IMG/VR virus record: IMGVR_UViG_3300000052_000006
Length of the DNA: 64,000 nt
Origin: a virus
Direction: 5' to 3' (one strand)
In this document: positions 1-13,538 of the stretch, piece by piece
How positions within the stretch are numbered: the first letter of the stretch is position 1
Layout: the number at the start of each line of letters is the position of its first letter
Position numbers and translations under genes: made by a program
The notes under the pieces: generated by a model
The model's input: the letters and a program-made list of their open reading frames with translations, nothing else
What the model was told of the DNA's origin: nothing
Databases searched by the model: none

Positions 1-646
1 CGTCGGCCTCGCTCTGCGGATCCGGGGCGACGTCGTTCTCGACGTGCTGGCGCCACCACTCCGCGGCACGGCGCAGGAGTTCGTCCTCGAGATCGGCGTC
101 GCGGGCCATGTGATAGACGCGCAGCTCCTGATTGCCGAACAGCACGGCCAGGTCGGCGTACTGGCAGCCGGTGAGGGCCTCGTACACGCTCACCTGCACG
201 AGATACGACGCGGGCACCTGGTCGGTACCGGCCGCGCCCCATTCACTCGCATCGCTTGCGGCAAAGGCCGATGCCGTCTTCGCCTCGAACAAGCGGTCGG
301 TTCGGATCTCGCCGCGGTGCGACGCCACCTTTGCGCCCTCGGGGATCACCAGGCGATCGACGTGGCCGATCACCATCGGATAGTCGGGGTGGCGCAACAT
401 GGCGTTGTAGCGCTGCACGCGGCGCCCGGTCTTGCGGGTGTATTCGTCGGCGACGAACTGCTCGGCGTAGCTGCCGAAGCGCATCTGAAGCGTTTCGTCG
501 GCGCCCGGTGCCCGGCCGGTTTTCTCCATCCAGACCTCGACCGGGCTGCGGTATTTCGACAGGCCGAGGACGGCGCCGATGTCGGAGCCTCCCAGTCCGC
601 TCCGGCGCTCGGCGAGGAACGCGGCGCGTTTGTCCGGGGCGTTCAT
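1..646 (-). CDS. YqaJ-like recombination exonuclease, 5' part (runs off the window start; full copy 44577-45548)
   Basis: MNAPDKRAAFLAERRSGLGGSDIGAVLGLSKYRSP N-terminus typical of YqaJ. Confidence 0.85.
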   Translation of the reverse strand, partial: MNAPDKRAAFLAERRSGLGGSDIGAVLGLSKYRSPVEVWMEKTGRAPGADETLQMRFGSYAEQFVADEYTRKTGRRVQRYNAMLRHPDYPMVIGHVDRLVIPEGAKVASHRGEIRTDRLFEAKTASAFAASDASEWGAAGTDQVPASYLVQVSVYEALTGCQYADLAVLFGNQELRVYHMARDADLEDELLRRAAEWWRQHVENDVAPDPQSEAD

Positions 647-873
647 GCCACCCCCTTCGCGCGCCGGTCCATACCCCGCGCGATGTCCTGCGCGGTCAGT
701 TCTGCCCGCTGCGCACGGCGCAGCTCGTCGAGCTTCGCTTCGAGCCCGGCGATGTGCGTATCGAACGAGGCTCGCGCCCAGTCGATGTCGGACTCCAGCC
801 GGCGGATCGTGGCGGCGCGCAGGTCGTGCCGGGCGCGGCGCAGGCTGCGGCGCACGAGGGTGACGATGCTCAC
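643..873 (-). CDS. Hypothetical coiled-coil early protein (GTG start)
   Basis: 4-nt overlaps with both neighbours; helical sequence. Confidence 0.6.
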   Translation of the reverse strand: MSIVTLVRRSLRRARHDLRAATIRRLESDIDWARASFDTHIAGLEAKLDELRRAQRAELTAQDIARGMDRRAKGVA

Positions 874-1091
874 GGCCGCGCCTCCGCAACGATCACCCGG
901 CGCGAGGGGCGGGCAGGTACGCTGAAGGGCGGGCATTCGCCGGCGGCGGCCTCGCTGCTCGCCTGGGTGTGCTCGGGCTGCGCCGGGGCAGCGTGCTCGG
1001 CGGCATGTCTGGTGGCGTTGGCGGTCACCGCCACGCCGAGGCCAAAGGCGCACACCAGCGGCAGCAACGTTTTTTCGATCCAGACGTTCAT
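870..1091 (-). CDS. Small membrane or secreted early protein
   Basis: MNVWIEKTLLPLVCAFGLGVAV hydrophobic N-terminus; GGAG RBS; coupled stops and starts. Confidence 0.6.
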   Translation of the reverse strand: MNVWIEKTLLPLVCAFGLGVAVTANATRHAAEHAAPAQPEHTQASSEAAAGECPPFSVPARPSRRVIVAEARP

Positions 1092-1369
1092 TTGTCCTCT
1101 CCTGTCGTGGTGCCGGCGCGGCGGCACGCGGAGTCGTGCTGAGCGGCAATCGCCTGCTCGGCGACATCGAACGACGAGGCACGAATCACCGCCTCGCGCT
1201 CGTGGTAGCGCGTCGTGCCTTCCCCGTCGACGCCGTGGCGGGCGTTCATCCGCCCCCACGAGTTCTTTTCCTCCGGCGTCATGATGTGCAGCGCGTTCAG
1301 AATGATCTGGTGGGCGAAGACCAGCTCTCGCAGAAGGTCCGCCGCGGTTTCCGTCATTGCTCTGGCCAT
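1088..1369 (-). CDS. Hypothetical early protein
   Basis: GGGGAG RBS, overlap with the next gene, phage-like composition. Confidence 0.65.
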   Translation of the reverse strand: MARAMTETAADLLRELVFAHQIILNALHIMTPEEKNSWGRMNARHGVDGEGTTRYHEREAVIRASSFDVAEQAIAAQHDSACRRAGTTTGEDK

Positions 1370-1385
1370 GGCCGTCTCCCCTCTC

Positions 1386-1745
1386 CTAGTCCTGTTCCTG
1401 TTCGGCCAGGCGATCCGCCTCGTCCTCGCGCTCCATCACCGCGACGATGCGTTCGGCTTCTGCACGGGCCTGTGCCTTGAGCGCCCGCCGCAGGGCCGTC
1501 TTCGTCGCCTGCCAGTACGCCATCGGGCCTTCGTCGTAAGCGGCGTTGATCGCCGCGTATTCGTCGTCGGTCAGCGTCGTCATGGCTTCGCCGCGGCTTG
1601 CCTCGTCCTTCATGAGCTCATCGAGCTCGATCTCGGCGAGAATCTCGACCGCCCGCTCGCGCACCTCTTCGCGATCGGAGGTTTCCGGCGGCAACGCGTC
1701 GCCGGGCCCGGGGATGTCCTTCCAGTTCGTGTGCGACATGCTCAC
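1386..1745 (-). CDS. Acidic hypothetical early protein
   Basis: GAGG RBS, ATGA overlap with the upstream gene. Confidence 0.7.
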   Translation of the reverse strand: MSMSHTNWKDIPGPGDALPPETSDREEVRERAVEILAEIELDELMKDEASRGEAMTTLTDDEYAAINAAYDEGPMAYWQATKTALRRALKAQARAEAERIVAVMEREDEADRLAEQEQD

Positions 1746-1930
1746 TTCCTCCTGTGCAGATGACTGCCGATGTGCCAGCCCGAGCAGTGCGGGCAGTGGT
1801 ACGGAGCGATGCGCTCGCAGTGCCTGTGGGCGCTGCGGGTTGCTGCTTTCCGGGCCCGGCCGTGCGAGGTGAACCGGTGCTTGCCGGAGCAGGTCGCCAC
1901 CGGATCGGTGGGGTCGCCTTTCAGGGACAT
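1742..1930 (-). CDS. Small Zn-finger-like protein
   Basis: CSGKHRF...YHCPHCSGWH motif common in phage small proteins. Confidence 0.7.
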   Translation of the reverse strand: MSLKGDPTDPVATCSGKHRFTSHGRARKAATRSAHRHCERIAPYHCPHCSGWHIGSHLHRRK

Positions 1931-2106
1931 TTCAGCGCCCCCCCCGGCAGGCCGCTGGCAAGCGCGGCCGCGACTTCATTGAACCCGGCGAGCACGAACG
2001 AGGCTGCGGCCAGGGAAACCGCCGCGGCGACGAGTAGGATGACGACGACCAGCAGGCCGCGGCCGGCGCGGCGGGTCTGGATGTGATGGCGGGGTAGGTT
2101 CGACAT
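1921..2106 (-). CDS. First PL gene, small membrane protein
   Basis: Basic N-terminus followed by long hydrophobic segment LLVVVILLVAAAVSLAAASFVLAGF. Confidence 0.55.
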   Translation of the reverse strand: MSNLPRHHIQTRRAGRGLLVVVILLVAAAVSLAAASFVLAGFNEVAAALASGLPGGALKCP

Positions 2107-2149
2107 GGCTGGCTCCCGGGGGGCCGACGTGGTTTCGTCGGCTGATTGG

Positions 2150-2191
2150 ATATTAGGCGCGCCTAACAGATAATGCAATAGGTGCTCCTAA
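2150..2191 (-). promoter_or_regulatory. PL promoter with two operators (OL)
   Basis: Minus strand TTGCAT-N17-TAATAT (2178-2173, 2155-2150); operators TTAGGCGCGCCTAA 2153-2166 (perfect palindrome) and ATAGGTGCTCCTAA 2178-2191. Confidence 0.85.
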
Positions 2192-2315
2192 TTTTTTTCT
2201 CGCGCCAGTTCCGCCATGACATTTGTCCCGCCGCACCCCGGGCATATCCGGCCATGGCATCCAACCCGTGTGGGCACTACGTTGAAGGTGGGAATAACTA
2301 CGTCATGGAGCGATC

Positions 2316-3145
2316 ATGAAACAGAGCTACGCAGTGCTCATTCCGCTTGCGGTTGTCGTTGTCGGGTGCGCATCGCCGGTACCGGTTGCGCAAAACTTCG
2401 AACTGACGCGCCAGAAGGTCGCGCGGGCGGCGCACCACTGGGACGTGGTGGCCGAGGACGTGGTCGACCAGACGCTCCGCTCGGTGGCCGAGAAGCCGCA
2501 GCTGCAAGGCCGTGGCCTCTATGTGGGGCAGGCCCGAAGCACGGCTTTCGATGTGGCGTTTCGCAATTTCTGATCACCCACCTTGTTCAGCGCGGCGCGA
2601 CCGTCAGCGAATGCAAGATCGGCTCGCCGGCGGTGGCCGGCTTTGCCCGCGACGGGGCGGACGTCGAGGTCCGCTATCACACGCAGCTCATCGTCCATAG
2701 CGGAAGAGGGTGGGATTACCAGCCGCCGCGGCTGACGATCCTGGCCTCTGGGGTGGCCGTGCTACGCGAAATCTTCCTGGCCGATCACGAGGTGGCCGGG
2801 GCGCTCACCGGTGCGGCGCTCACGGATTGGTGGGCTGGGCACATGGCACGCCCGACCAGAACGGAGGTGATCGTTACGACGACGGTGGTTGAGAACAACC
2901 GCTTCGTCATGCGGACGAAGGACATCTACTACGTCCCGGATGGCGATGCGACCCTCTTCACGCAGAAGGTCGCGCAGCGCGGCATGTGCCCGGAAGAGAA
3001 GACGATGGCCGCCAACGACGACGCCGAGACTCTGCCGCAGGAGATCGTGACCGAGCTGTCGCGGCAGGAAATGCTCAAGCGCGACATGCGCCGGACCAAC
3101 CCCGACTGGAAGCCGACCACGCAACCGACGGCATATTCGTTCTGA
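2316..3145 (+). pseudogene. Lipoprotein moron interrupted by a 1-nt frameshift at about 2568-2573
   Basis: Lipobox LAVVVVG-C in 2316-2573; the reading continues in the -1 frame (RNF|LITHLVQRG) to 3145; span is 830 nt, one short of a multiple of 3. Confidence 0.75.
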
Positions 3146-3252
3146 GTGAAAGCCCCCGCGCTGAGTGTGCCGGGTGAGGGGGCTGCTGCGGCGGCGAGGC
3201 CGCGCCGGGCCGTGCTATCCTCTTGCCACCAACAGCGTGACATAAGGTGGCA

Positions 3253-3495
3253 ATGCGCAAGCCTCGCCTCTACAGCATCCAGTCCCGGCATGCCCGGGAG
3301 TGCGAGCAGATCCTGAGCGAACTGCTCGAACTGGCGAAGGCGGGGCGGCTCACCGGAATCAACTGGTCAGCGGTCACCGACGGGCGCGGAGTGGTTTCCG
3401 GCCGGGCCGGCGTGATGGCGCGCGACGACGGCCTTGCGTTGCTGTCGTCCTTCCGCAAGGCGACCGATATCGCCGGAGAATCGCAGCCACGCTGA
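3253..3495 (+). CDS. Small hypothetical protein of the immunity region
   Basis: AAGGTGG RBS then ATG 3253 (GTG 3247 alternative); extended -10 TGcTATCCT at 3213-3221. Confidence 0.65.
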   Translation: MRKPRLYSIQSRHARECEQILSELLELAKAGRLTGINWSAVTDGRGVVSGRAGVMARDDGLALLSSFRKATDIAGESQPR

Positions 3496-3509
3496 GCCCG
3501 CGGTAGAAT
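3481..3509 (+). promoter_or_regulatory. Sigma70-type promoter for the candidate sRNA
   Basis: TCGCAG (3481-3486)-N17-TAGAAT (3504-3509) followed by a GC-rich discriminator. Confidence 0.65.
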
Positions 3510-3516
3510 CCCGCGC

Positions 3517-3636
3517 TTGCAGGCGTGGAGAGCCACCTCCATGTAGCCTGCGTCCAGACGGCTGCGGGGCCCGAAGAGCCCCCCGACCCAGGCGCGCTGC
3601 ATCCCCCCCTCGGCCCGCTCACGCGGGTTTCTTTTT
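3517..3636 (+). ncRNA. Candidate ~120-nt trans-antisense sRNA against the cII ribosome-binding site
   Basis: Own promoter; hairpin P1 3519-3551, hairpin P2 about 3560-3588, unpaired seed CATCCCCCCCTC 3600-3611 (reverse complement of 4737-4748), intrinsic terminator; no credible ORF. Confidence 0.65.
3614..3636 (+). terminator. Intrinsic terminator ending the sRNA, overlapping the cI stop codon
   Basis: CCCGC-TCAC-GCGGG followed by TTTCTTTTT. Confidence 0.8.
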
Positions 3637-4182
3637 GCGCCCTGCCTCGCGTTGCCGCGGGATCATCGCCTCATTTTCGTTTCTCACCCATTTTGCATCA
3701 AGCTTTTTGACGTCGATCTCCCGCGCCGGCCGGGCTGATGCAGCCGGTTTGGATGCTCCCTGCAGCGCGAGTTCGATGCGCAGCCTGGCCGCCCCTTCGT
3801 CCTCGACCAGGTCTTCGTAGCGGACCCCGAGCGCTTGCAGGGTGCCCGACACGACATCTCTGATCACTTCATAGGTGATCTCACGAGCAGCGCGCTCGGT
3901 TTCGGGTATGCAATCAGGGGGAAGCGGTGCGGATGATAGGTCGTTATCGTGCGCCACGGATTCGTCTGGCGTCTTCGGGCCGCGCCCTTCCGTGAGCCAC
4001 AGCATATTTACACCAAGGAAGGCCGCTGCCCTTTGTGCGGGGACCGCTTTCATGCTCCGCGTCTTGCCGCTGAGCCAGTCGTTCACTGATGGGGTCTTCA
4101 CGCCGCACGCGCGGGCGAGTTCAGTCTGCGTCTTGCCGGAATTGGCAAGGGCTTCGCTGATGCGGTCTTTGAGTGTACTCAT
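3619..4182 (-). CDS. cI: CI-like repressor (XRE/HTH_3 N-terminus, no S24 peptidase domain)
   Basis: MSTLKDRISEALANSGKTQTELARACGVKTPSVNDWLSGKT...LGVNMLWLTEGRG HTH; divergent from cro; flanked by operators. Confidence 0.85.
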   Translation of the reverse strand: MSTLKDRISEALANSGKTQTELARACGVKTPSVNDWLSGKTRSMKAVPAQRAAAFLGVNMLWLTEGRGPKTPDESVAHDNDLSSAPLPPDCIPETERAAREITYEVIRDVVSGTLQALGVRYEDLVEDEGAARLRIELALQGASKPAASARPAREIDVKKLDAKWVRNENEAMIPRQREAGRKKKPA

Positions 4183-4248
4183 ATAGGCAATCCTAACCGG
4201 CAGGCTATTAGGCATTCCTTGACTCTTGAAGTTAGGTGCGCCTAAAAT
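4183..4248. promoter_or_regulatory. OR1-OR3 operators with PR (rightward) and PRM-like (leftward) promoters
   Basis: ATAGGCAATCCTAA 4183-4196, TTAGGCATTCCTTG 4208-4221, TTAGGTGCGCCTAA 4232-4245; PR TTGACT 4219-4224 and TAAAAT 4243-4248; minus-strand -10 TAGGAT 4195-4190. Confidence 0.85.
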
Positions 4249-4255
4249 CTGTGAC

Positions 4256-4633
4256 ATGGACTCGAACCTCGACGCATCCGCAATCATCGACGCACTTGGC
4301 GGCACGTCCGCTGTTGCTGACATGTTTGATATCAAGCCTCCGTCTGTTTCCGAGTGGAGGGAGCGCAACCACATCCCGAAAGCGCGCCTGATGTACCTGA
4401 AGCTCGCGCGCCCGGACGTCTTCGATGGCCTGCCGGTCGGGCAGTGCGCCGACGCTGCAATGCCCGAAGGCGCACAGCCGCCGCTGTCCATACGGAGCCC
4501 CCAGACCGCGTCTGGGCTGGGGGCGAGGCCGGAATCACAGACTTGCGCAGTGGGCTCGACCGTCGCGGGGGCGCTGACCGACGAGTCCGCCGCGGACGGC
4601 GCAACGAGAACGGTCGAGCCGGCTGGCGACTGA
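4256..4633 (+). CDS. cro: Cro-like HTH regulator with a low-complexity C-terminal extension
   Basis: IIDALGGTSAVADMFDIKPPSVSEWRERNHIP is Cro/YdaS-like; first gene of PR. Confidence 0.8.
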   Translation: MDSNLDASAIIDALGGTSAVADMFDIKPPSVSEWRERNHIPKARLMYLKLARPDVFDGLPVGQCADAAMPEGAQPPLSIRSPQTASGLGARPESQTCAVGSTVAGALTDESAADGATRTVEPAGD

Positions 4634-4692
4634 AATGACACACCTTGCACGTCCATCCCGTTTGCTCCTCGTTTCGCTTGCTGCGGGGGCCC

Positions 4693-4726
4693 GCCCAGTC
4701 GGCGTGAGTCGGCTGGGCATCTTTTT
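4693..4726 (+). terminator. tR1-like intrinsic terminator
   Basis: GCCCAGTCGGC-GTGA-GTCGGCTGGGC followed by ATCTTTTT. Confidence 0.8.
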
Positions 4727-4729
4727 GTG

Positions 4730-4762
4730 AGCCTAGGAGGGGGGGATGGAAAGCGCTGGAAA
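4730..4762 (-). promoter_or_regulatory. PRE-like CII-activated promoter
   Basis: Minus strand TTTC-CAGCGC-TTTC tetrad repeat around a poor -35, 17-bp spacer, -10 TAGGCT; same position relative to cII as lambda PRE. Confidence 0.6.
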
Positions 4763-4970
4763 AGCCTTTTCAAAGTTGGTCGCGGCCTACGAGGCCGCCG
4801 GCAAAAAAACGGCGCTCGCATCCGAGCTCGGCGAGCGCGACAGCCAGCTCTCGAAGCTGGTGCACATGCATGGGCCGAAGCTGTGCCGGCTGTTCGACCT
4901 GCTCGGCCTCGAGCTGCACGACGCCGGCTATGTGAAAGCGATCGAGAAGGCGTTGAAGGAGAAGCTGTGA
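4746..4970 (+). CDS. cII: Lambda CII-like transcriptional activator
   Basis: Aligns by eye to lambda CII (G-x-x-x-A-x-x-x-G-x-x-x-SQ[IL]S ... PK[FL]-x-x-L); lies downstream of cro and tR1. Confidence 0.75.
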   Translation: MESAGKAFSKLVAAYEAAGKKTALASELGERDSQLSKLVHMHGPKLCRLFDLLGLELHDAGYVKAIEKALKEKL

Positions 4971-5212
4971 TGGGTGCATCCGATATGACCGCGCAGGCCG
5001 CCGACTTAGTGGCGGCGACGTCGGGCGGCCCGCATGCATGCCATGCGTTCGATAAAGAAATTGTGACGGGCGCGTTTGTGGAAGCCGTCAAGGACGGCAT
5101 CTGCAAGCACGCCGAGTGTCGCCATGGCGGCCGTCGTGGTCTTGGCGATCACCACAAAACGCGAGGCGTCATGACGCACGATGGAGAAGACGATGGCGAC
5201 CCCGAGCAGTGA
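4970..5212 (+). CDS. Hypothetical protein
   Basis: TGATG coupling to the cII stop; no recognisable motif. Confidence 0.35.
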   Translation: MGASDMTAQAADLVAATSGGPHACHAFDKEIVTGAFVEAVKDGICKHAECRHGGRRGLGDHHKTRGVMTHDGEDDGDPEQ

Positions 5213-5453
5213 CGACAGAAATGCCATGGAACGGCCCAGAAATGCGCCCCGGAAGAACTGTCGGCGCCGAAAGAGCCGGAAGACGTGCCTGGTCATGATC
5301 TTCCTGCTGGCTCTGGCTGCCCAGCTCAGCGGCGGAATGGCACTGATCGCCATCCTCGCAGCCCAGATCCTTTTCTTGATCGCATTGATTATCACGGCGA
5401 CTCCGATGACGACTGAGCGTCGTCGCGATTCTAGTCGCATGGGGGAGCGGTGA
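5181..5453 (+). CDS. Putative small membrane protein
   Basis: Basic/Cys stretch then two hydrophobic segments; GTGA overlap with the helicase start. Confidence 0.4.
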   Translation: MEKTMATPSSDDRNAMERPRNAPRKNCRRRKSRKTCLVMIFLLALAAQLSGGMALIAILAAQILFLIALIITATPMTTERRRDSSRMGER

Positions 5454-7957
5454 TGGAAGCGCACGCCGACTACCTCGAGTTTCTGCGCGAGAAGATGCCG
5501 CTCGCGACCTTCGACGGCTACGAGGTCGAGGACTGTGAGATCCACCCGCTGCTGAAACCGCACCAGCGCGCCGTGGTGCGCTGGGCGGTGAAGGGCGGCA
5601 ACCGGGCGCTGTTCGAGGCCTTCGGCCTGGGCAAGTCCCTGCAGCAGATCGAGACGGTGCGCCTTACCCGTGCGCGCTGTGGTGGCAAGGCGCTGATCGT
5701 GTGCCCGCTGGGCGTGCGCCAGGAATTCCGCCGTGACGGCGAGAAGGTCGGCGTTCGGTTCCAGTTCATCCGTAGGCCCGAAGAGATGGAAGAGGGCTGC
5801 GATTTCTACCTGACGAACTACGAGTCGATCCGCGACGGCCGGCTCGATCCGCGGCAGTTCTCGGTGGTGAGCCTCGACGAGGCGAGCGTGCTGCGCTCCT
5901 ACGGTTCGAAGACCTACCAGGAGTTCCTGCCGCTCTTCGCCGGGGTGAAGCATAAGTTCGTCGCGACCGCGACGCCGAGCCCGAACCGGTACAAGGAGCT
6001 GATCCACTACGCCGGCTTCCTCGGGATCATGGACACCGGGCAGGCCCTGACGCGGTTCTTCCAGCGCGACAGCACGCAGGCGAACAACCTGACGCTGTAC
6101 CCGCACAAGGAACAGGAATTCTGGCTGTGGCTGAATTCGTGGGCGGTGTTTCTGCAGCGCCCGTCCGACCTTGGCTTCGATGACGCCGGCTACGACCTGC
6201 CGCCGCTCGACGTGCGCTACCACGAGGTGACGACGAACCACGCCGCGGCCGGCGCCGAGAAGGACGGCCAGGGCCTGCTCTTCAAGGATGCCGCGATCGG
6301 CCTGCAGGCGGCGGCGCACGAGAAGCGCGACAGCCTGCCCGTGCGTATCGCGAAGATGCGCGAGATCCTCGCTGCGGACCCGGACAGCCACTACATCCTG
6401 TGGCACGACCTCGAGGCCGAGCGCCATGCGATCCAGGCGGCGGTGCCCTCGGCGGTGGCGATCTACGGAACGCAGGATCTGGACGAGCGCGAACAGGCAA
6501 TCGTCGATTTCTCCGACGGCAAGTTCCAGTACCTGAGCGCGAAGCCGGAGATCGCCGGCAGCGGCTGCAACTTCCAGCGCCACTGCCACAAGGCGATCTT
6601 CCTGGGCATCGGCTACAGCTTCAACGACTTCATTCAGGCCATCCACCGGATCCAGCGCTTCCTGCAGGCGTACCCGGTGGAGATCCACATCATCCACTCG
6701 GAGGCCGAGCGCGAAATCCTGCGCACCCTGCAGGCGAAGTGGGTGCAGCACGAGGAGATGGTGGCGAACATGACCCAGATCATCAAGGAACACGGCCTGA
6801 ACCATCTGTCGCTCGCCGACGTGCTCACGCGCACGATCGGGGTCGAGCGCATCGAGGTGCAGGGCGACCGCTTCACTGTCGCGAACAACGACTGCGTCAT
6901 CGAGGCGCGGCGCCAGCCGGCGGGTCACGTCGACCTGATCGTGACCTCGATCCCGTTCGCGAACCACTACGAATACACGCCGAGCTACAACGACTTCGGC
7001 CACACCGCGAACAACGATCACTTCTGGCGCCAGATGGATTTCCTGACGCCCGAGCTGCTGCGCATCCTGCGGCCCGGCCGGATCTACGCCTGCCACGTGA
7101 AGGACCGCATCCTGTTCGGCAACGTCACCGGCGCCGGCGCGCCGACGGTGTCGCCGTTCCACTGCGAGGCGATCATGCACGGCCTCAAGCACGGCTTCGA
7201 CTACATGGGGATGATCACGGTCGTCACCGATGTCGTGCGCGAGAACAACCAGACCTACCGCCTGGGCTGGTCGGAGCAGTGCAAGGACGGCACGAAGATG
7301 GGCGTCGGCTCGCCGGAGTATGTGCTGCTGTTCCGCAAGCCGCAGACCGACCGCAGCCGCGGCTATGCCGACCTGCCGGTGACGAAGAGCAAGGCCGACT
7401 ACACCCGCGCGCGCTGGCAGGTCGATGCGCATGCGTTCTGGCGCTCGAGCGGCAACCGCCAGCTGACGGCCGAGGAGCTCGCAGGCCTGGGCCCCGACAA
7501 GCTCGCCAAGGCCTTCACCGAGTACAGCCTCGCCAACGTCTATGACTACGATTTCCACGTTCGCATCGGTGAGGAGCTGGAAGCGCGGGGATCGCTGCCG
7601 TCGTCGTTCATGAGCCTCGCCCCGGGCAGCCACCACGCTGAGGTCTGGCATGACGTCAATCGCATGCTCACGCTCAACGGGCAGCAGACGCAGCGCGGCC
7701 TGCAGAACCACGTTTGCCCGCTGCAGTTCGACATCGTCGATCGGCTGATCACGCGCTACAGCAACGCGGGCGAGCTGGTCTATGACCCGTTTTGCGGCCT
7801 CGGAACCGTGCCGTATCGCGCACTGAAGCTCGGGCGTCGCGGGCAGGGCTCCGAACTCAACACCGGCTACTTCTTCGACTCCGTGCAGTACCTGAAGGCG
7901 ATGGAGCGCGAGGTTTCGATGCCGAGCCTGTTCGATGTGATGGACGAGGCTGCCTGA
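5450..7957 (+). CDS. SNF2-like helicase fused to a beta-class N4/N6 DNA methyltransferase
   Basis: Walker A GLGKS, DEAS box, TATP, motif VI QAIHRIQR; C-terminal TSIPF (motif IV) and DPFCGLGT (motif I). Confidence 0.88.
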   Translation: MMEAHADYLEFLREKMPLATFDGYEVEDCEIHPLLKPHQRAVVRWAVKGGNRALFEAFGLGKSLQQIETVRLTRARCGGKALIVCPLGVRQEFRRDGEKVGVRFQFIRRPEEMEEGCDFYLTNYESIRDGRLDPRQFSVVSLDEASVLRSYGSKTYQEFLPLFAGVKHKFVATATPSPNRYKELIHYAGFLGIMDTGQALTRFFQRDSTQANNLTLYPHKEQEFWLWLNSWAVFLQRPSDLGFDDAGYDLPPLDVRYHEVTTNHAAAGAEKDGQGLLFKDAAIGLQAAAHEKRDSLPVRIAKMREILAADPDSHYILWHDLEAERHAIQAAVPSAVAIYGTQDLDEREQAIVDFSDGKFQYLSAKPEIAGSGCNFQRHCHKAIFLGIGYSFNDFIQAIHRIQRFLQAYPVEIHIIHSEAEREILRTLQAKWVQHEEMVANMTQIIKEHGLNHLSLADVLTRTIGVERIEVQGDRFTVANNDCVIEARRQPAGHVDLIVTSIPFANHYEYTPSYNDFGHTANNDHFWRQMDFLTPELLRILRPGRIYACHVKDRILFGNVTGAGAPTVSPFHCEAIMHGLKHGFDYMGMITVVTDVVRENNQTYRLGWSEQCKDGTKMGVGSPEYVLLFRKPQTDRSRGYADLPVTKSKADYTRARWQVDAHAFWRSSGNRQLTAEELAGLGPDKLAKAFTEYSLANVYDYDFHVRIGEELEARGSLPSSFMSLAPGSHHAEVWHDVNRMLTLNGQQTQRGLQNHVCPLQFDIVDRLITRYSNAGELVYDPFCGLGTVPYRALKLGRRGQGSELNTGYFFDSVQYLKAMEREVSMPSLFDVMDEAA

Positions 7958-7968
7958 CGAGCGCCGCC

Positions 7969-8883
7969 ATGAACTACTACCCATTCCACATCGGCGACTA
8001 CCTCAGCGCAACCCGGCATCTGAGCTGGGCCGAGGACTGCGCCTACCGCCGCCTGCTCGACACCTACTACGTGTCGGAGAAGCCGCTTCCGTCCGATCTG
8101 CGCGCCGTCTGCCGCCTTGTCCTGGCGACGACCGATGAGCAGCGTGAGGCCGTGAAGGTGGTGCTCGAAGAGTTCTTCGAGCTCGCCGAGGACGGCTGGA
8201 TCAACGCGCGTGCCGATCGGGAAATCGCCGCGATGCGGGAGAAGCAGGAGAAGCAGCGCGCGAAGGCAAACAAGCGCTGGCAGAAGCCACGCGAGGAACC
8301 CGGCAATGCATCGGCACTGCCGCAGCATGAAGAAAGCGATGCCGCGGCACAAAAAACCGATGCCGATGCAATGCCACCAACACCAACACCAACACCAAAA
8401 GGTAAACCCCCTACCTCTCCTGTCGGAGAGGTATCCCCCCCAAGCGATGAAACGCCGAGCGTTACCGAAACGCCCGATGCGTCGCCTTCGGCTCCGCCGC
8501 ATCTGGACGGCGAGCAATGCAGCCTGGTCTCGCTCCCTGCAAAACCCGATGCACGAGGAACCAGGCTCTCTGCCGACTGGCGGCTACCGAAGGCCTGGGG
8601 CGAATGGGCATTGCAGGAGCGCCCGACCTGGAACGCGGATGCCGTCCGTGCCGTGAGCGAGCGCTTCCGCGATCACTGGATCGCGAAGCCCGGCAAGGAC
8701 GGCCGCAAAGCCGACTGGCTCGCGACCTGGCGCAACTGGGTGCGCCGCGAATCTGATCCGCAACCCGCATCCGCACCGAGGAGATCGATCCATGACCAGC
8801 GCAGCGCGACAATCGCCGCCCTCACCGGGGCATCGGGCAGCAGTGACGACATCCTCGATGGCCAGCTCCGTGTCCTTGGTTGA
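7969..8883 (+). CDS. Replication initiator, YdaU/DUF1376 (O-like)
   Basis: MNYYPFHIGDYLSATRHLS...AYRRLLDTYY; C-terminal RGTRL..DW...F.DHW...K.DW.ATWRNW motif. Confidence 0.88.
   Translation: MNYYPFHIGDYLSATRHLSWAEDCAYRRLLDTYYVSEKPLPSDLRAVCRLVLATTDEQREAVKVVLEEFFELAEDGWINARADREIAAMREKQEKQRAKANKRWQKPREEPGNASALPQHEESDAAAQKTDADAMPPTPTPTPKGKPPTSPVGEVSPPSDETPSVTETPDASPSAPPHLDGEQCSLVSLPAKPDARGTRLSADWRLPKAWGEWALQERPTWNADAVRAVSERFRDHWIAKPGKDGRKADWLATWRNWVRRESDPQPASAPRRSIHDQRSATIAALTGASGSSDDILDGQLRVLG
8303..8399 (+). repeat. Probable replication origin (iteron-like repeats inside O)
   Basis: GCAATGC at 8303 and 8368, several GATGC(C), A6 tract, (ACCAAC)3-ACCAAA at 8376-8399. Confidence 0.5.
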
Positions 8884-9391
8884 GCGCATCTTCGCCCGCA
8901 TGGCCGCGTTCTACGGTTCGCGCTTTGCCGACATGTGGCGCGACGCCGACCCGGCCGAGCTCAAGCGGGTATGGGCCGAGGAGCTGGCCGACCTCACCCC
9001 CGCGGAGATCGCCCGCGGCATCGACGGCTGCCGCACCCGCGACTGGCCGCCGACGCTGCCCGAGTTCCTGCGCCTGTGCCGGCCTGCACCCGACTACGAG
9101 GCCGCGTTCTGCGAGGCCGCCGAGCAGATGTACCGCCGCCAGCAGGGGGAGGACCGCTGGAGCGATGTGGCGATCTACTGGGCCGCGACGTGGATGGGGC
9201 GCGACGTGATGGCGGTGGCCTACGAGCCGGTGAAGGGGCGCTGGAGGGCGAATCTCGACCTCGCCCGGCAGGCGATCCGCGCCGGCGAGCTGCCCGACGT
9301 GGTGCCGCCGCGCATGACGGCGCTGCCCACGCCGGGCGCGACCGTGGCCTCGGCCGACGATGCCCGGGCGATCCTGCGGGGCGGGGCATGA
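8858..9391 (+). CDS. Lambda P-like helicase loader
   Basis: FARMAAFYGSRFADMW...W.EEL...I.RG...WPPTLPEF..LC signature; lies between O and DnaB. Confidence 0.75.
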   Translation: MASSVSLVERIFARMAAFYGSRFADMWRDADPAELKRVWAEELADLTPAEIARGIDGCRTRDWPPTLPEFLRLCRPAPDYEAAFCEAAEQMYRRQQGEDRWSDVAIYWAATWMGRDVMAVAYEPVKGRWRANLDLARQAIRAGELPDVVPPRMTALPTPGATVASADDARAILRGGA

Positions 9392-10761
9392 ATGCGCCGC
9401 TGCCGCTGAATGCGGTGTCGATCGAGGCCGAGCAGTCGCTGCTGGGCGGGCTGCTGATCGACAACGGCGCATTCGATCGCATCGCCGGGCTGGTGACGGA
9501 GGCGGACCTGTACCGCGAGGACCACCGCCGCATCTTTCGCACCATCGCCCGCCTGCTCGAGGCGGGCAAGCCGGCCGACTTCCTGACCGTGACCGAGGCG
9601 CTGGAGACGGCCGGAGAGCTCGGCCAGTCGGGCGGCATGGCCTACCTGGCCGAGCTCGCGGACGCGACCGCGTCGACGGCCAACATTCGCCGCTATGCCG
9701 AGATCGTGCGTGAGCGCGGCGCGGTGCGCCGACTGCTCGCCGCCGGCGACGAGATCACCGCGATCGCCACTGCGGCCGGGATGACGCTGGCGGAGAAGAC
9801 CGATCGGGCGCAGGCGCTGGTGATGGCCGCCGGGGGCGAGTCGGCTGGCGAGGACCTCGTCGGCATGGACCGGCTGGCGCAGCTGCTCACCGTCGATCTG
9901 CAGCAGCGCGCCGAGCGGGGAGGGCGGCCGACCGGGCTCGCGACGGGCTTTGTCGATCTCGACGAGATCACCAGCGGGCTGCAGCGCTCGGATCTGATCG
10001 TCGTTGCGGGGCGGCCGGGCATGGGGAAGACGGCGATCGCGCTCAACGCCGGGCGCGCGATCGCAAGCACCGGGGAGCCGGCGCTGGTGATCACCCTCGA
10101 GATGCCCGCCGTGCAACTCGGCCACCGCCTCGTCGCGGACATCGGCCGGGTGTCGATGAGCAAGATCCGCAAGGGCCAGCTCACGCACGACGAGTGGCAC
10201 GAGGTCAGCCACGCGATGGAGCGCATCCGGGCGCTGCCGATGCGGATCTCGGATGCCGCAGCGCCGACCGTGATGCAGGTGCGGGCGATGGCCAGGAAGG
10301 CGCGGCGCGAGATGGGCGGCCTGGGCGTGGTGGTGGTCGATTACCTGCAGCTGATGACCGGCAGCGGCGAGCACCGCGCCGAGCAGATCGCGAGCATCAG
10401 CCGCGGCTTGAAGGCGCTGGCGAAGGAGCTCGACTGCGTGGTGATCGCGCTGAGCCAGCTCAACCGCGCGCTCGAGCAGCGCCCGAACAAGCGCCCGGTG
10501 ATGTCGGACCTGCGCGAGTCCGGCGCGATCGAGCAGGACGCCGACCTGATCCTGTTCGTGTATCGCGACGAGATCTACAACCCGAATTCGGCCGACGCCG
10601 GTACCGCCGAGCTGATCCTCGGCAAGCACCGAAACGGCCCGCTCGGAACTGTCCGCCTGGCCTACCTGGGCGAGAACGTGCGCTTCGAGAACCTTGCGAA
10701 GGGCTGGAAGCCGAGCGCACCGGTGAAGTTCAGTGGATACGACGATGGATTCGAGGAGTAG
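9388..10761 (+). CDS. dnaB: Phage DnaB-like replicative helicase
   Basis: SIEAEQSLLGGLL, GRPGMGKT, VVDYLQL, LSQLNR, SDLRESGAIEQDAD. Confidence 0.95.
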   Translation: MNAPLPLNAVSIEAEQSLLGGLLIDNGAFDRIAGLVTEADLYREDHRRIFRTIARLLEAGKPADFLTVTEALETAGELGQSGGMAYLAELADATASTANIRRYAEIVRERGAVRRLLAAGDEITAIATAAGMTLAEKTDRAQALVMAAGGESAGEDLVGMDRLAQLLTVDLQQRAERGGRPTGLATGFVDLDEITSGLQRSDLIVVAGRPGMGKTAIALNAGRAIASTGEPALVITLEMPAVQLGHRLVADIGRVSMSKIRKGQLTHDEWHEVSHAMERIRALPMRISDAAAPTVMQVRAMARKARREMGGLGVVVVDYLQLMTGSGEHRAEQIASISRGLKALAKELDCVVIALSQLNRALEQRPNKRPVMSDLRESGAIEQDADLILFVYRDEIYNPNSADAGTAELILGKHRNGPLGTVRLAYLGENVRFENLAKGWKPSAPVKFSGYDDGFEE

Positions 10762-10939
10762 GGGGCAGACATGGACCGAATCGCACAAACGAGCCTGCTT
10801 GATCCGCTGGGTGATGCGCCTGCAGAAGGAGGCGAGGCAGACGTTCTACGAGACGTGGGCGAGGCGGCACGGCAAGGCGAGCACGCTGGTGCTGATCGAG
10901 GAGGTGAAGCAGGCGCACCGCTCGACATCCGCTTCGTGA
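10733..10939 (+). CDS. Small conserved-looking phage protein overlapping dnaB and rusA
   Basis: TWTESHKRAC..RWV...R..F...W..RHG resembles small nin-region proteins; GTGA junction at 10936. Confidence 0.5.
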   Translation: MDTTMDSRSRGQTWTESHKRACLIRWVMRLQKEARQTFYETWARRHGKASTLVLIEEVKQAHRSTSAS

Positions 10940-11370
10940 TCCCCGGCGAGCCGAAGGGGAAGGGCCGCCACCGCTCGCGGATCGCGAAGATGGGCAACGG
11001 CAAGCAGTTCGTCGCGCACTACGCCCCGAAGGACACCGTCGAGTACGAAAACCTGGTGCGCATGGCCGCAATGCAGGCGATGGCAGGGCGCGTGCCGAGC
11101 GAACGCCCGGTGCTGGTCGAACTCGTTGCCACCTGCTCGGTACCGGCCAGCTGGTCGCAGAAGAAGCGGCGCGCGGCACTGATGGGCGAGGTGATGCCGA
11201 CCGGGAAGCCCGATCTGGATAACGGGCTGAAGGCCGTGCTCGACGGGCTGAACAAGATCGTGGTGAAGGACGACGCCCAGGTGTGCCGTGTCGGCATGAG
11301 CAAACAGTACGGCGAGACCCCGCGTGTGTTCGTACGGGTGGTGGAGCTGCATGCGAGGAGTGCGCGGTGA
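10771..11370 (+). CDS. rusA: RusA-family Holliday junction resolvase (start uncertain: ATG 10771 or GTG 10936)
   Basis: IPGEPKGKGR ... KPDLDN..KAVLDGLN..V.KDDAQV. Confidence 0.88.
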   Translation: MDRIAQTSLLDPLGDAPAEGGEADVLRDVGEAARQGEHAGADRGGEAGAPLDIRFVIPGEPKGKGRHRSRIAKMGNGKQFVAHYAPKDTVEYENLVRMAAMQAMAGRVPSERPVLVELVATCSVPASWSQKKRRAALMGEVMPTGKPDLDNGLKAVLDGLNKIVVKDDAQVCRVGMSKQYGETPRVFVRVVELHARSAR

Positions 11371-11492
11371 TCGCGGCCCTCAAAGCGATTGGCTGGGCGG
11401 TTCTGGTGATCTGCATCTTGATCTTCGCCATCGGCCTGGTCGCTGTTCGCGACATGCTGCGGCGGATGGACAACGATCCGGAGGGATATTGA
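11367..11492 (+). CDS. Small single-TM protein
   Basis: GTG start overlapping the rusA stop; IGWAVLVICILIFAIGLVAV. Confidence 0.55.
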   Translation: MIAALKAIGWAVLVICILIFAIGLVAVRDMLRRMDNDPEGY

Positions 11493-11743
11493 TGGCCGAC
11501 CTGGTCCACCGCCTGCGCCAGCTCGCCGCGCTCGGCGTCGACATCGCCGGGGAGGCGGCTGATGCGCTGGAGCGCGAGCAGGCGGCCACCACTCCGATGC
11601 GATCGGCGCTGGCCTGGTATGCCGAAACCGGGAACTGGAAACGTTCGACGCGAGGCCGCTCGTGGTCGAACTCGTCGGCGGCAGAAGACCGCGGCTCGCT
11701 GGCGCGGATGGTGCTGCTCGAGCAGGGAGGCGGGCAGGGATGA
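11492..11743 (+). CDS. Hypothetical nin-region protein
   Basis: TGATG and ATGA coupling at the two ends. Confidence 0.65.
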   Translation: MADLVHRLRQLAALGVDIAGEAADALEREQAATTPMRSALAWYAETGNWKRSTRGRSWSNSSAAEDRGSLARMVLLEQGGGQG

Positions 11744-12165
11744 GCGCGGTCACGCAGACGCTGTTCAGGGAGTTCGTGATCCGGACGCCGGACGTCGCGT
11801 TCGCGCTTGCCGGCTACCTGAAGCAGCACGCCGGCCTTGCCGCGGCCCGCGGGCGGCCGCTGCGGGTGCTCGTCGTGGAAGCGGACCAGCCGCGGACGCT
11901 CGCGCAGAACAAACGGTATTTCGGCTTTCTCCTGAAGGCCATCGCCGCTCAGGCGTGGGTCGACGGCCGTCAGTATTCCGCAGAGGTATGGCACGACCAC
12001 CTGGCGGCTGAAATGGGCTTCCTGCAGGAGGTCGTCATGCCGTCGGGCGAGATCGTCGTACGCCGCCGCAGCACGACCGAGATGTCCGTCGCCGAGTTCT
12101 CCGACTTCATGCAACGCGTCGAGGCCTACGCCGCGACCGAACTGGGAGTGCGATTCCATGAGTAA
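11740..12165 (+). CDS. ninB: NinB/YbcN-family recombination protein
   Basis: RTLAQNKRY ... EVWH ... STTEMSVAEFSDFMQRVEAYAA-E-GV. Confidence 0.85.
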   Translation: MSAVTQTLFREFVIRTPDVAFALAGYLKQHAGLAAARGRPLRVLVVEADQPRTLAQNKRYFGFLLKAIAAQAWVDGRQYSAEVWHDHLAAEMGFLQEVVMPSGEIVVRRRSTTEMSVAEFSDFMQRVEAYAATELGVRFHE

Positions 12166-12433
12166 CGCAGCAAAGCGGCACATGGGCCGCGTGGCACAGC
12201 TTCCATGCTGCCTGTGCGGCGCGATTCCCGTGCAGGTCCACCACCTCCGGGAAGGCGATACCGCCGGCGCTGGCCAGCGTGCGAATGACTGGCTGACGAT
12301 CCCGCTGTGCCCAGAGCACCACACCGGTGCCACCGGCGTGCATGGCGACAAGTCGATGCTGCGGCTCGTCGGAAAGAACGAGCACGACCTGCTCGGCGAG
12401 ACACTGGAGCGGCTGTATGGGGGGCTGCGCTGA
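12158..12433 (+). CDS. DUF968/Ref-like HNH-type Zn nuclease
   Basis: LPCCLCG...VHH...R.NDWLTIPLC.EHH. Confidence 0.7.
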   Translation: MSNAAKRHMGRVAQLPCCLCGAIPVQVHHLREGDTAGAGQRANDWLTIPLCPEHHTGATGVHGDKSMLRLVGKNEHDLLGETLERLYGGLR

Positions 12434-12645
12434 TGGCCGGCTACCGCTCACCCCTGGGCCGGCTGCTGCCCGATCCCATCGACGCCGAACGCATCAAGCG
12501 TGAGGCCTGGCGCGACGACAAGATCCTCGTGGTGAACCTCAACGATGAGCGCCTGGATTTCGTGCAGCGCGAGTTCGTGCGCCAGATCGGAGACAAGCTG
12601 TTCGGGCGACCGAAGGTTTTCACGAGCAAGGCCCCGCCGCGATGA
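12433..12645 (+). CDS. Hypothetical protein
   Basis: Translationally coupled at both ends. Confidence 0.6.
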   Translation: MAGYRSPLGRLLPDPIDAERIKREAWRDDKILVVNLNDERLDFVQREFVRQIGDKLFGRPKVFTSKAPPR

Positions 12646-12830
12646 ACGCCGCAGATGAGCGACTGACCGCGCCGATCCCAGAGCCCTGCAGGACATGCCA
12701 GAACCGGGAGCAGTGGATGGTTCTTGGAGTGGAGCGCAATCGATGCCTTTCCGGACACCCGATGCATGAAGGCTGCGGCTGGTACAGGCCAGCGGCCAGC
12801 TCACTGAGCAAGGAGCACGCCACGACATGA
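12642..12830 (+). CDS. Small Cys-containing hypothetical protein
   Basis: CRTC...C...H...C; ATGA overlaps. Confidence 0.5.
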   Translation: MNAADERLTAPIPEPCRTCQNREQWMVLGVERNRCLSGHPMHEGCGWYRPAASSLSKEHATT

Positions 12831-13426
12831 CGACATCCACGGAGACTTTGCGCATGACGACTGCCGTCGAACCGATATTCGAGAGCACGCACAACGCGCT
12901 CACCTTCGCTTTCAACTACAGCCTGCAGCAATATGACGCGCCGCCAATGGCGCGGCTCATGCGCAAGGCGATTGGTAGCGGGAAAGGCCTGGTCGGACTT
13001 GATGGCGCGGCCCAGTCCGGCTTCATCAGGGCCGAGGTGGCGCGCCTGCCGATCGAGCAGCAGATGGTTCTGATTGCCCGCTTTGCGCCATCCACGCAAG
13101 AGTGCGATTGCGGCCGACCGTGCTGCAGCGGGAAGACCGCGGGGAAGGAGTGGTATGAAGCGATTGGGTGGCTGACCAGCTATGCCATGCGCGCCGCCCT
13201 TACTGGGTGCGTGTCGCATCACAGGCTGCGCCAGGCGCTTGTGATGCGCGCCTTCGGATTCAAGACAGCCAGCCTGGACGCTCTCGCCGAGACCGCGTCG
13301 GTGCATCGGAATACCGTCAGCGACCAGAACCAGCGGGTGCAGCGGCACATGAGGGAGATCGAGACCGCCGCCGCTCGGGCGATCGACGAGCGGCTGCGAA
13401 ACTGCGGGATGGTTGGCAACGGGTGA
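12827..13426 (+). CDS. Putative late-gene regulator (Q position; Cys cluster plus C-terminal HTH)
   Basis: CDCGRPCC; SLDALAETASVHRNTVS HTH; immediately upstream of the late promoter and terminator. Confidence 0.6.
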   Translation: MTTSTETLRMTTAVEPIFESTHNALTFAFNYSLQQYDAPPMARLMRKAIGSGKGLVGLDGAAQSGFIRAEVARLPIEQQMVLIARFAPSTQECDCGRPCCSGKTAGKEWYEAIGWLTSYAMRAALTGCVSHHRLRQALVMRAFGFKTASLDALAETASVHRNTVSDQNQRVQRHMREIETAAARAIDERLRNCGMVGNG

Positions 13427-13439
13427 GGATGCGCGGCGC

Positions 13440-13468
13440 TTGACTGTGCAGCAGATGCACTGTATAAG
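13440..13468 (+). promoter_or_regulatory. Late promoter (PR'-like)
   Basis: TTGACT-N17-TATAAG; spacer carries the inverted repeat GTGCA-N5-TGCAC. Confidence 0.65.
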
Positions 13469-13500
13469 CCGAAAACATATACACGGGATCAGTCCCGATG

Positions 13501-13537
13501 AAGCCCGCCGCCGGAAGGTCGCGGGCTTTTGCTTTTC
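13501..13537 (+). terminator. tR'-like intrinsic terminator
   Basis: AAGCCCGC...GCGGGCTT followed by TTGCTTTT. Confidence 0.8.
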
Positions 13538-13538
13538 A

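Follow-up and report, generated by a model that had tools for sequence, protein, structure and literature searches.

Small RNAs linked to the choice between lysis and lysogeny have been described in several phages, including OOP, sar, aQ, 24B_1 and VpdS, each of which acts by a different mechanism, and we know of few small RNAs of temperate phages that have been studied beyond enterobacteria. RsaE/RoxS, the CcsR/"cuckoo" RNAs and AbcR combine a structured body and an intrinsic terminator with an unpaired C/U-rich motif directed against G-rich Shine-Dalgarno (SD) sequences, while CpxQ and SroC are small RNAs (sRNAs) derived from 3' untranslated regions (3'UTRs). Among phage RNAs, StxS is a by-product of termination (PMC7547250), and P22 sar blocks translation initiation of a lysis/lysogeny regulator at the ribosome-binding site (RBS) (PMC12197685). 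A 2025 review of phage small RNAs lists no trans-acting, OOP-like, retargetable anti-cII regulator (PMC12197685).

In this report we focused on a folded non-coding element of ~120 bases with its own terminator, located on the + strand between a gene encoding 80 aa (ORF80) and the 3' end of a cI-like repressor gene. The phage genome is 44,902 bp (44.9 kb) long and is wrapped in the window, the whole 64,000-nt stretch of DNA that was analysed (positions 1-19098 equal 44903-64000). Like this RNA, lambda OOP is short, terminator-ended, near the immunity region and convergent with the 3' end of a regulatory gene (PMC12197685). OOP lowers CII, an effect that for this RNA is a proposal, and it does so as a cis-antisense to the 3' end of cII via RNase III, whereas this RNA overlaps the last ~6 codons of cI. 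Unlike OOP, it is separated by 1.1 kb from the cII-like gene, with no overlap between the two (3518-3636 and 4746-4970, respectively), and could reach the RBS of that gene only in trans. The two RNAs share no sequence or structural similarity in an Rfam scan. Pairing at an RBS, as for P22 sar, is likewise proposed here, but sar is fully complementary to its target because it arises by antisense transcription of the ant locus itself, whereas a short seed would act in trans here. The likeness to RsaE/RoxS, CcsR/"cuckoo" and AbcR, which is drawn from descriptions and comes with no detected homology, is limited by the fact that their C-rich motifs are conserved, usually sit in hairpin loops and are often several, whereas the one in this RNA is single and forms its most variable linker. 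CpxQ, SroC and StxS are similar in another respect, since this RNA lies directly past a stop codon, shares the terminator of the mRNA and has a doubtful promoter of its own in most relatives; in contrast to them, a -10-like hexamer in this phage and in one relative, L004, suggests an additional primary transcript.

A family of structured RNAs at the cI 3' end

The main finding is that the + strand segment 3518-3636 is a member of a structured phage RNA family without earlier description. Homologues recovered via ORF80, a DNA pattern and a covariance model gave a set of six, comprising this phage, two Aromatoleum prophages and three metagenome contigs (the loci outside the window are L003, L004, L035, L037 and L038). 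In all six, which are related temperate phages of Aromatoleum-type hosts, the RNA adjoins the 3' end of a convergent cI-like gene. The architecture consists of an 84-nt closed multi-helix body, a C-rich single-stranded linker of ~10 nt and an intrinsic terminator (Table 1). In the consensus fold, 96.8% of alignment cells are paired, versus 27-48% when partners are slid, and four pairs change on both sides, three in P1 and one in P2 (split three versus three sequences). No shuffle reached the covariation score, and the G-U wobbles fit the + strand only, as they would be A-C mismatches on the - strand. With only six sequences available, the support for the remaining helices (H0, H2 and H3) comes from invariant pairs and wobbles.

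A sequence-only reading of this DNA had proposed a promoter, two hairpins and a terminator in an ORF-less unit, and each of the motifs it quoted is present where it was placed. The terminator is detected at 3612-3629 plus the T-run and is conserved in six of six homologues, its stem being 100% paired in every one and followed by a U-tail (UUUCUUUUU); a T-run follows the hairpin on the + strand only, with none on the - strand. Among the hairpins, P2 and the inner P1 stem are backed by compensatory changes, whereas the outer P1 helix (GCAGGC/GCCTGC) has a rival in a closing helix (UGCAG/CUGCA plus GCCUG/CAGGC) that is just as compatible and is found in 4/6 single-sequence folds. The sole long frame in the unit (3270-3602, - strand) is not conserved. 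Covariation among homologues and the terminator bear out the view of a discrete, structured, terminator-ended non-coding RNA element on the + strand, running from the 80-aa ORF to the end of cI. The seed, which had been taken to be single-stranded, is indeed predicted to be so, with the linker unpaired in the consensus fold and in 4/6 single-sequence folds, a mean unpaired probability of 0.43-0.80 across homologues (0.57 in this phage) and an opening energy of 0.5-2.8 kcal/mol.

Conservation is distributed unevenly. DNA identity is 81-91% in the RNA body versus 66-82% in ORF80 and 45-59% in the 3' part of cI, and ~26 nt of the body are near-invariant. Within the family, variation is greatest in the linker, which reads UCCCCCCCUC, UCUCCCCUC, UCCCCACUC, AUCCCCUG or UGCCACUCC across the six homologues, and no other member has the C7 linker of this phage. 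Rfam 15 covariance models assigned the RNA to no family (best overlapping model HgcF, 12.4 bits against a cut-off of 70, E = 5.2), and a tRNA/tmRNA search at the element found none. The RNA is present in two of 20 Aromatoleum genomes, both times in a prophage, and in none of ~800 further genomes from the same family and order (Rhodocyclaceae, Burkholderiales); no close relatives were found in phage GenBank records, IMG/VR or JGI metagenomes by blastn, tblastn and pattern scans. We considered a host-gene fragment or attP and rejected both on the lack of a tRNA/tmRNA or Rfam match, the patchy occurrence in host genomes and the lack of an integrase next to the RNA at any locus. The importance of this family is that it is supported by covariation, absent from Rfam and fixed at a regulatory position in the immunity region of phages whose hosts are aromatic-compound-degrading Betaproteobacteria.

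Table 1. Features of the RNA locus and the neighbouring immunity region, in window coordinates
Feature	Position	Strand	Basis or remark
Promoter-like TGGATA-N16-GATAAT	2147-2174 (feature 2147-2194)	+	candidate start of operon ORF85-ORF170-ORF80-RNA
Operator-like palindrome TTAGGCGCGCCTAA	2153-2166		overlaps TGGATA-N16-GATAAT; second, half-conserved copy at ~2181-2194
ORF80, 80 aa	3253-3495	+	last gene before the RNA; called on public contigs
-10-like hexamer TAGAAT	3504-3509	+	sequence; 8 nt upstream of first paired base
RNA structured body	3518-3601	+	helices H0, P1, H2, H3, P2
H0	3518-3522 with 3597-3601	+	consensus fold
P1	3523-3530 with 3537-3544	+	consensus fold
H2	3546-3554 with 3585-3593	+	consensus fold
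H3	3555-3557 with 3562-3564	+	consensus fold
P2	3566-3570 with 3578-3582	+	consensus fold
C-rich single-stranded linker UCCCCCCCUC (seed of the sequence-only reading)	3602-3611	+	with C3600 and A3601 forms the 12-mer
Intrinsic terminator GGCCCGC-UCAC-GCGGGUU + UCUUUUU	3612-3636	+	terminator scan (3612-3629 plus T-run); homologue alignment
cI-like repressor	3619-4182	-	N-terminal HTH; Pfam HTH_3 1.7e-6; PHROG repressor families
pR-like promoter TTGACT-N18-TAAAAT	4219-4248	+	promoter scan; operator palindrome 4232-4245
Cro-like gene	4256-4633	+	P22_Cro 2.1e-5; phrog_8008 1e-13
tR1-like intrinsic terminator, gap between cro-like and cII-like genes	4693-4728	+	11-bp stem and T-run
cII-like SD-AUG GAGGGGGGGATG	4737-4748	+	SD AGGAGG 4735-4740, G-run, AUG
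cII-like gene, 74-aa HTH protein	4746-4970	+	position and weak similarity

Transcription and proposed mode of action

The RNA is part of a coding gene's 3'UTR and shares the terminator of that gene, as 3'UTR-derived sRNAs do. It starts 0-3 nt past the stop codon of the upstream ORF in L003, L035, L037 and L038, and 22 nt past it in this phage. The upstream gene here, ORF80, has homologues at 64-85% identity and a GC content by codon position typical of coding sequence, with no family match in Pfam or PHROG. An independent promoter for the RNA is uncertain. The hexamers proposed for it are present, but the promoter is weak (TCGCAG matches two of six consensus positions at -35 and TAGAAT five of six at -10), the promoter scan makes no call, and a -10-like hexamer recurs only in L004, as TAAAAT at the same spacing within a leader identical at 20/25 positions; no -10-like hexamer is found at this spacing in L003, L035, L037 or L038. 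Judged by its sequence, TAGAAT/TAAAAT may nevertheless serve as the RNA's own -10 in this phage and L004. Further upstream, the candidate operon start is overlapped by an operator-like palindrome of the same type as one (TTAGGTGCGCCTAA) inside the cro promoter at 4232-4245, and we infer that cI may control this site. Metatranscriptome contigs from four studies cover ORF80 and the RNA, although these are strandless assemblies in which DNA carry-over or read-through from cI is possible. Two RNA-library contigs end at ~3613, beside the terminator, these being ends of contigs and not of transcripts.

The best explanation as a whole, which we favour tentatively and with less than even confidence, is a structured phage RNA family that is likely to act in trans via its variable C-rich linker. 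The RNA would form the 3' end of a rightward transcript of the ORF85-ORF170-ORF80 operon, with its own -10 as an additional possibility in this phage and L004, and would be released or accumulate as a terminator-ended small RNA. Its most likely mechanism would be base pairing in trans, in which the conserved body would be a scaffold for stability or protein binding and the exposed C-rich linker would pair with G-rich SD regions, the targets differing by lineage. In this phage, the best candidate target would be the cII-like initiation region, a pairing that could be either a lineage-specific feature or a coincidence rather than the conserved purpose of the family. Several observations count against this explanation. 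The seed is the worst-conserved part of this RNA, whereas it is the best-conserved part of typical base-pairing sRNAs, and the evidence for its expression consists of library contigs. No initiation region is among the top partners of the linker in L004 (40 kb) or in L035, L037 and L038 (10 kb each). Finally, the single-sequence fold of this phage's RNA is no better than shuffles (z = -0.58), and the family counts six sequences.

A possible alternative, to which we give a minor share of our confidence, is that the element is a cis-acting module for convergent transcription. Transcripts of cI, which would have no terminator of their own, would run antisense through the RNA, and the resulting ~120-bp duplex would be cut in an OOP/RNase III-like manner, tuning cI and/or ORF80, with the linker a mere spacer. 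The cI gene itself would be spared antisense transcription, since the terminator halts transcription of the rightward operon right at the stop codon of cI. In line with this, the cI stop codon (on the opposite strand) lies inside the terminator loop at all loci, the - strand has no T-run there, and RNA-library contigs bridge ORF80, the RNA and the 3' part of cI. The RNA also keeps with the cI 3' end when its surroundings change, whether the upstream gene (a BrnT/BrnA insert in L004, other upstream sequences in RNA contigs) or cI itself, of which L004 retains a C-terminal remnant without evident start beside an intact RNA, while ORF80 homologues occur in other contexts without the RNA. However, antisense complementarity is automatic in such an arrangement, which leaves the compensatory changes, the one-strand wobbles and the ~26 near-invariant nt unexplained, and for insulation the terminator alone would be enough.

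Complementarity to the cII-like initiation region

The sequence-only reading went further and saw a dedicated trans-encoded anti-cII riboregulator, whose C7 seed co-evolved with a G7 RBS and would occlude SD and AUG, biasing the phage to lysis. We consider this unlikely. The complementarity is exact, 12/12, between CATCCCCCCCTC (3600-3611) and GAGGGGGGGATG (4737-4748), and the 44,902-bp genome contains no other 12-mer complementary to the 118-nt RNA, the extra matches at 48502 and 49639 being the same sites because the window wraps around. The proposed extensions of the pairing (GCGCT/AGCGC, CCA/TGG and GGC/GCC) exist as well, but only across loops of 1-3 nt. Self-matches aside, the linker's highest-ranked duplex in this genome is with the cII-like initiation region, the accessible seed matching an initiation region as in trans-encoded sRNAs; the duplex energy is -25.8 kcal/mol, opening the mRNA costs 9.4 kcal/mol, and the net energy comes to roughly -14 to -15 kcal/mol. 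As modelled, pairing with cII in this one phage is thermodynamically plausible, and we doubt that it takes place. The match between a C7 linker unique in the family and the phage's own unusual G7 RBS likewise favours a dedicated regulator.

Other features of the match speak against it. For random 118-nt segments of this GC-rich genome, which served as a segment-based null, exact 12-mer complements elsewhere number 5.1 on average, and 92% of the segments possess one or more, so the length of the match is by itself unremarkable. The match is also SD-like and of low complexity. Only its position is remarkable, a single-stranded linker against an SD-AUG, for which the expectation is roughly 0.002-0.04. 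In the consensus fold, C3600 and A3601 of the 12-mer, together with the GCGCU and CCA bases of the extensions, are paired within the RNA. The assignment of the 4746-4970 gene as cII is itself weak. Its position, first after cro and a tR1-like terminator, is that expected of the CII family, and an analogous terminator follows cro in L035, but its protein matches phrog_725 ("CII-like regulator") at E = 0.0037, has no Pfam match above the cut-off and finds weak XRE-type HTH matches only in a PDB profile search. P0051, a cII-like protein 95% identical to it, is encoded on a 2.5-kb contig (SRR22387997), a candidate for carrying both the gene and the RNA.

The comparison with relatives, in which every relative read carries either the RNA or the cII-like gene and none both, bears on co-evolution indirectly, neither showing nor directly refuting covariation of seed and RBS. 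No part of the RNA is less conserved than the seed, and the DNA available for the relatives contains no RBS that matches theirs. The A. anaerobium host genome of L004 has the RNA and no homologue of the cII-like gene, and its seed has no target within one mismatch in 40 kb. In L035, the positional cII analogue (Phage_CII E = 0.03, below the cut-off) has an unrelated RBS. Conversely, a G-run is missing from the RBSs of cII-like homologues (66-72% identity), whose contigs showed no RNA element. This comparison of sequences does not support the idea that the RNA evolved to switch off the cII-like gene, nor does it support a dedicated switch co-evolved with the G7 RBS. As for other targets, near-complements of the invariant core in two host genomes show no excess over a reversed-pattern control. 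A 14-nt match of the L004 linker region at ~9.7 kb was rejected as a target: it falls within a real gene in the sense orientation and is thus a direct repeat.

Possible roles of the body and the linker

Less likely still is a protein-binding or structure-driven RNA, whose body would be recognised by the C-terminal part of cI, by ORF80 or by a host protein and would act as a decoy or cofactor. A conserved scaffold with a variable linker is the reverse of the usual sRNA pattern, which suits this possibility, as does the co-occurrence at six of six loci with a cI C-terminal motif (ITYEV..GVRYEDLV..AAR.RIE) in a repressor that has no S24 peptidase domain. However, the RNA is intact in L004 beside a mere remnant of cI, and ORF80 occurs without the RNA. 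There is next to no chance that the 12-mer is instead, on the - strand, the RBS and start of a 110-aa gene (3270-3602) translationally coupled to cI, in which case the complementarity would be the same SD-ATG occurring twice: 7 nt past the cI stop TGA come GAGGGGGGGATG and an open frame of 110 codons, but this frame stops after four codons in L003, is shifted by 1-nt indels in other relatives, has the composition of a shadow frame (GC2 > GC1; an R/S/A/P-rich product) opposite the conserved ORF80, and has neither a call by gene callers nor a family match, which refutes it as a real feature.

Returning to the favoured reading of a trans-acting RNA with a variable C-rich linker, a more specific version is that a fixed scaffold carries a fast-evolving, "programmable" anti-SD linker that was retargeted, in this phage, to the cII-like RBS (C7 against G7). 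We regard this version as improbable. If it were true, the RNA would be a trans-acting functional analogue of lambda OOP in the decision between lysis and lysogeny, and, with the linker acting as a retargetable anti-SD seed, a cII-type regulator would for the first time be seen under the control of a trans-encoded RNA. If the body matters instead, the family would point to a new RNA-protein or convergent-transcription mechanism around an S24-less repressor. Two cultivated lysogens, Aromatoleum anaerobium LuFRes1 and A. toluolicum, carry the RNA, which is therefore directly testable.

A rare, phage-borne RNA element

The central finding of this analysis is that the ORF-less unit picked out by the sequence-only reading, all of whose quoted motifs were correctly located, is a genuine phage RNA element, new to the literature, most of whose anatomy had been correctly described. 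A competing minus-strand frame, in which one RBS sequence would serve two opposite-strand genes, was rejected. Here the 12-mer at 3600-3611 would serve as an SD-ATG, 7 nt beyond the cI stop, for a frame of 110 codons (3270-3602). However, the frame meets a stop after four codons in the Logan contig L003, is shifted by single-base indels between homologues, lies with shadow-frame composition across from the conserved 80-aa ORF (ORF80), and is uncalled by gene callers.

Searches that used the cI protein, ORF80 and a DNA pattern led to five further copies, in prophages of Aromatoleum anaerobium LuFRes1 (L004) and A. toluolicum (L035) and in contigs from public sequencing runs (Logan; L003, whose cI is 59% identical, L037 and L038). 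In all six copies, a convergent cI-like gene abuts the element with its 3' end, and its stop codon lies inside the terminator hairpin. A covariance model built from the six matches solely those loci in the 172 kb of DNA scanned, and 2 of 20 Aromatoleum genomes; BLAST finds the element in none of ~800 other genomes of the same family and order. It is also absent from the GenBank phages, IMG/VR and JGI metagenomes searched, has no Rfam family match, and coincides with no tRNA or tmRNA. This restricted distribution shows that the element is rare and phage-borne, and rules out a host gene or attP fragment. ORF80 homologues are found beside integrase genes as well, in elements of another kind (L036 1742-2038, L041 2231-2530), with genes for SSB, AAA_25 and DUF1441 and, in L041, a HigB-like toxin; the covariance model detects no RNA element at these two loci.

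Features of the RNA element and the immunity region, in window coordinates
Feature	Coordinates	Strand	Remark
Closing helix UGCAG/CUGCA	3518-3522 with 3597-3601		Consensus fold
Hairpin P1	3523-3544		Consensus fold
Long helix GCCUGCGUC/GACNCAGGC	3546-3554 with 3585-3593		Consensus fold
Small invariant hairpin	3555-3564		Enclosed by long helix
Hairpin P2	3566-3582		Enclosed by long helix
Linker	3602-3611		~10 nt
Terminator	3612-3636		
cI-like HTH repressor	3619-4182	-	Without S24 domain
pR-like promoter	4219-4248		Strong
Cro-like gene	4256-4633		
tR1-like terminator	4693-4728		
74-aa HTH protein, cII-like	4746-4970		Basis: position and weak PHROG match only

The consensus fold is well supported by comparison, with 96.8% of its cells paired versus 27-48% when the partners are slid, both-side changes at three P1 pairs and one P2 pair, and a covariation score that no shuffle reached. 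The outer P1 helix originally drawn (GCAGGC/GCCTGC) is also compatible with the data. The version with the closing helix, which leaves the linker free, arises independently in four of the six folds of single sequences. At all seven positions with a wobble pair (G-U or U-G), the opposite strand would carry an A-C mismatch, and a U-tract is found on the plus strand only, which identifies the RNA as a plus-strand product. Between loci, identity is 81-91% for the RNA body, 66-82% for ORF80 DNA, and 45-59% for the 3' part of cI.

Transcription and upstream signals

Six metatranscriptome runs from five studies contain 20-60% of the sampled 31-mer words of the element. Contigs from four runs (four studies; 90-97% identity) span ORF80, the element and partly the cI 3' region. 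Two of them, each from a different study, stop at ~3613 beside the terminator, and others have unrelated sequence upstream of the element. These contigs, which carry no information on strand, ends or abundance and could reflect DNA carry-over, are consistent with natural transcription.

The proposed promoter is weak: TAGAAT scores 5/6 and TCGCAG 2/6, and a promoter scan leaves the site uncalled. The leaders of the window and L004 are identical at 20 of 25 positions, and carry TAGAAT or TAAAAT at a distance of 8-9 nt from the closing helix, which would put the start at ~3515-3517. L004 keeps this leader despite an insert between ORF80 and the element (~1090-1640, minus strand; ~345.1-345.6 kb in A. 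anaerobium G001:C13), a BrnT/BrnA-like toxin-antitoxin pair identified only by eye from translated sequence. In the other four copies, the element starts 0-3 nt past the ORF80 stop, too close for a -10 to fit at the same distance.

A promoter-like site further upstream (2147-2174, plus strand) is overlapped by the palindrome TTAGGCGCGCCTAA, of the same type as one inside the cro promoter, which suggests that an operon of ORF85, ORF170, ORF80 and the RNA may be cI-controlled and early. Operator-like palindromes flank the immunity region (2147-2194 and 4232-4245; TTAGGCGCGCCTAA and TTAGGTGCGCCTAA, plus ATAGGTGCTCCTAA at ~2181), and the site at the left one aims rightward into this operon, which may thus be repressor-controlled and converge on cI.

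Possible pairing with the cII-like gene and alternative roles

The sequence-only reading proposed that the linker occludes the cII-like SD-AUG in trans and suggested that its C7 run co-evolved with a G7 run there. The complementarity is real: GAGGGGGGGATG occurs once per strand of the genome (3600-3611, minus; 4737-4748, plus), two further matches being wrap copies, and this is the only 12-nt complement of the whole 118-nt RNA. The cII-like initiation region ranks first among non-self partners in a duplex scan of both strands (-39.0 versus -36.9 kcal/mol for the next site), and the 12-bp duplex retains ~-14 kcal/mol after opening energies (hybrid -25.8, RNA +2.8, mRNA +9.4). However, 12-mer complements are not rare in this genome, since 92% of random 118-nt segments have at least one (mean 5.1). 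The sole unusual aspect is placement, a single-stranded linker opposite an SD-AUG, for which our own rough estimate of the chance expectation is 0.002-0.04, depending on how far SD-complementarity is taken to come naturally with a C-rich linker. The predicted opening energy of the cII-like RBS G-run (4737-4748) is high, 9.4 kcal/mol, so the G-run is probably paired inside its own mRNA leader, and such self-pairing alone could modulate translation.

Comparison of relatives does not favour a dedicated anti-cII RNA. Within the element, conservation is lowest in the linker: UCCCCCCCUC in the window, UCUCCCCUC in L003 and L004, UCCCCACUC in L035, AUCCCCUG in L037 and UGCCACUCC in L038. The A. anaerobium genome encodes no cII-like homologue, and the 40 kb around its prophage contains no site within one mismatch of the complement of its own seed. 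The gene that occupies the cII position of L035 carries an unrelated RBS, and the best linker partners in L035, L037 and L038 include no initiation region. Conversely, cII-like homologues that are 72% and 66% identical lack a G-run in their RBSs, and no RNA element was found on their contigs. The two parts are thus not inherited together in the relatives compared, none of which was seen to carry both; the one candidate for both is the contig encoding P0051, a 95% identical cII-like homologue. A 14-nt linker-region match in A. anaerobium was rejected as a target because it falls within a real gene in the sense orientation and is therefore a repeat. This copy of GCACUGCAUCUCCC (30725-30738 in the reverse-complemented L007+L008 joint; G001:C13 ~335.26 kb), ~9.7 kb from the element and in the same sense, is a chance repeat or recombination trace.

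What is conserved functionally is the folded body and its fixed position against cI, not the C-run. The single most likely mechanism, which we favour only tentatively, is a trans-acting RNA whose exposed, lineage-variable linker would pair as an anti-SD. Alternatively, the element could act in cis, in convergent transcription with cI; this fits the conservation pattern about equally well and is a less probable but serious contender. In the present phage the RNA may repress the cII-like gene, though this is rather unlikely; the 2025 phage small RNA review (PMC12197685) includes no trans-encoded cII regulator, and the anti-cII model would be new if true, but present evidence does not favour it. 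A protein-binding scaffold, which also fits conservation about equally well, is the least likely of these.

The record and its immunity region

Positions 1-19098 and 44903-64000 are identical, which shows that the window is a 44,902-bp record (66% G+C) wrapped on itself. The wrap doubles every feature of the first 19.1 kb, and the RNA/cII-like pair recurs at 48416-48542 and 49639-49650. Identical DNA (100%) is present in one ENA assembly and one independent Logan run.

The immunity region is lambda-like. A tR1-like terminator 3' of the cro-like gene is also found in L035 (6318-6350), and a C-rich leader (GTCTCCCTCCCGGC.CCTCC..GGGC) is common to the cro-distal regions of L003 (at its end) and L035. 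A C-terminal motif, ITYEV..GVRYEDLV..AAR.RIE ... KKKPA, is conserved among the cI-like repressors of the window (3619-3950, minus strand) and the five relatives, and an S24 peptidase domain is absent from these repressors; L004 retains just a remnant of the C-terminal part, behind an unrelated repressor gene.
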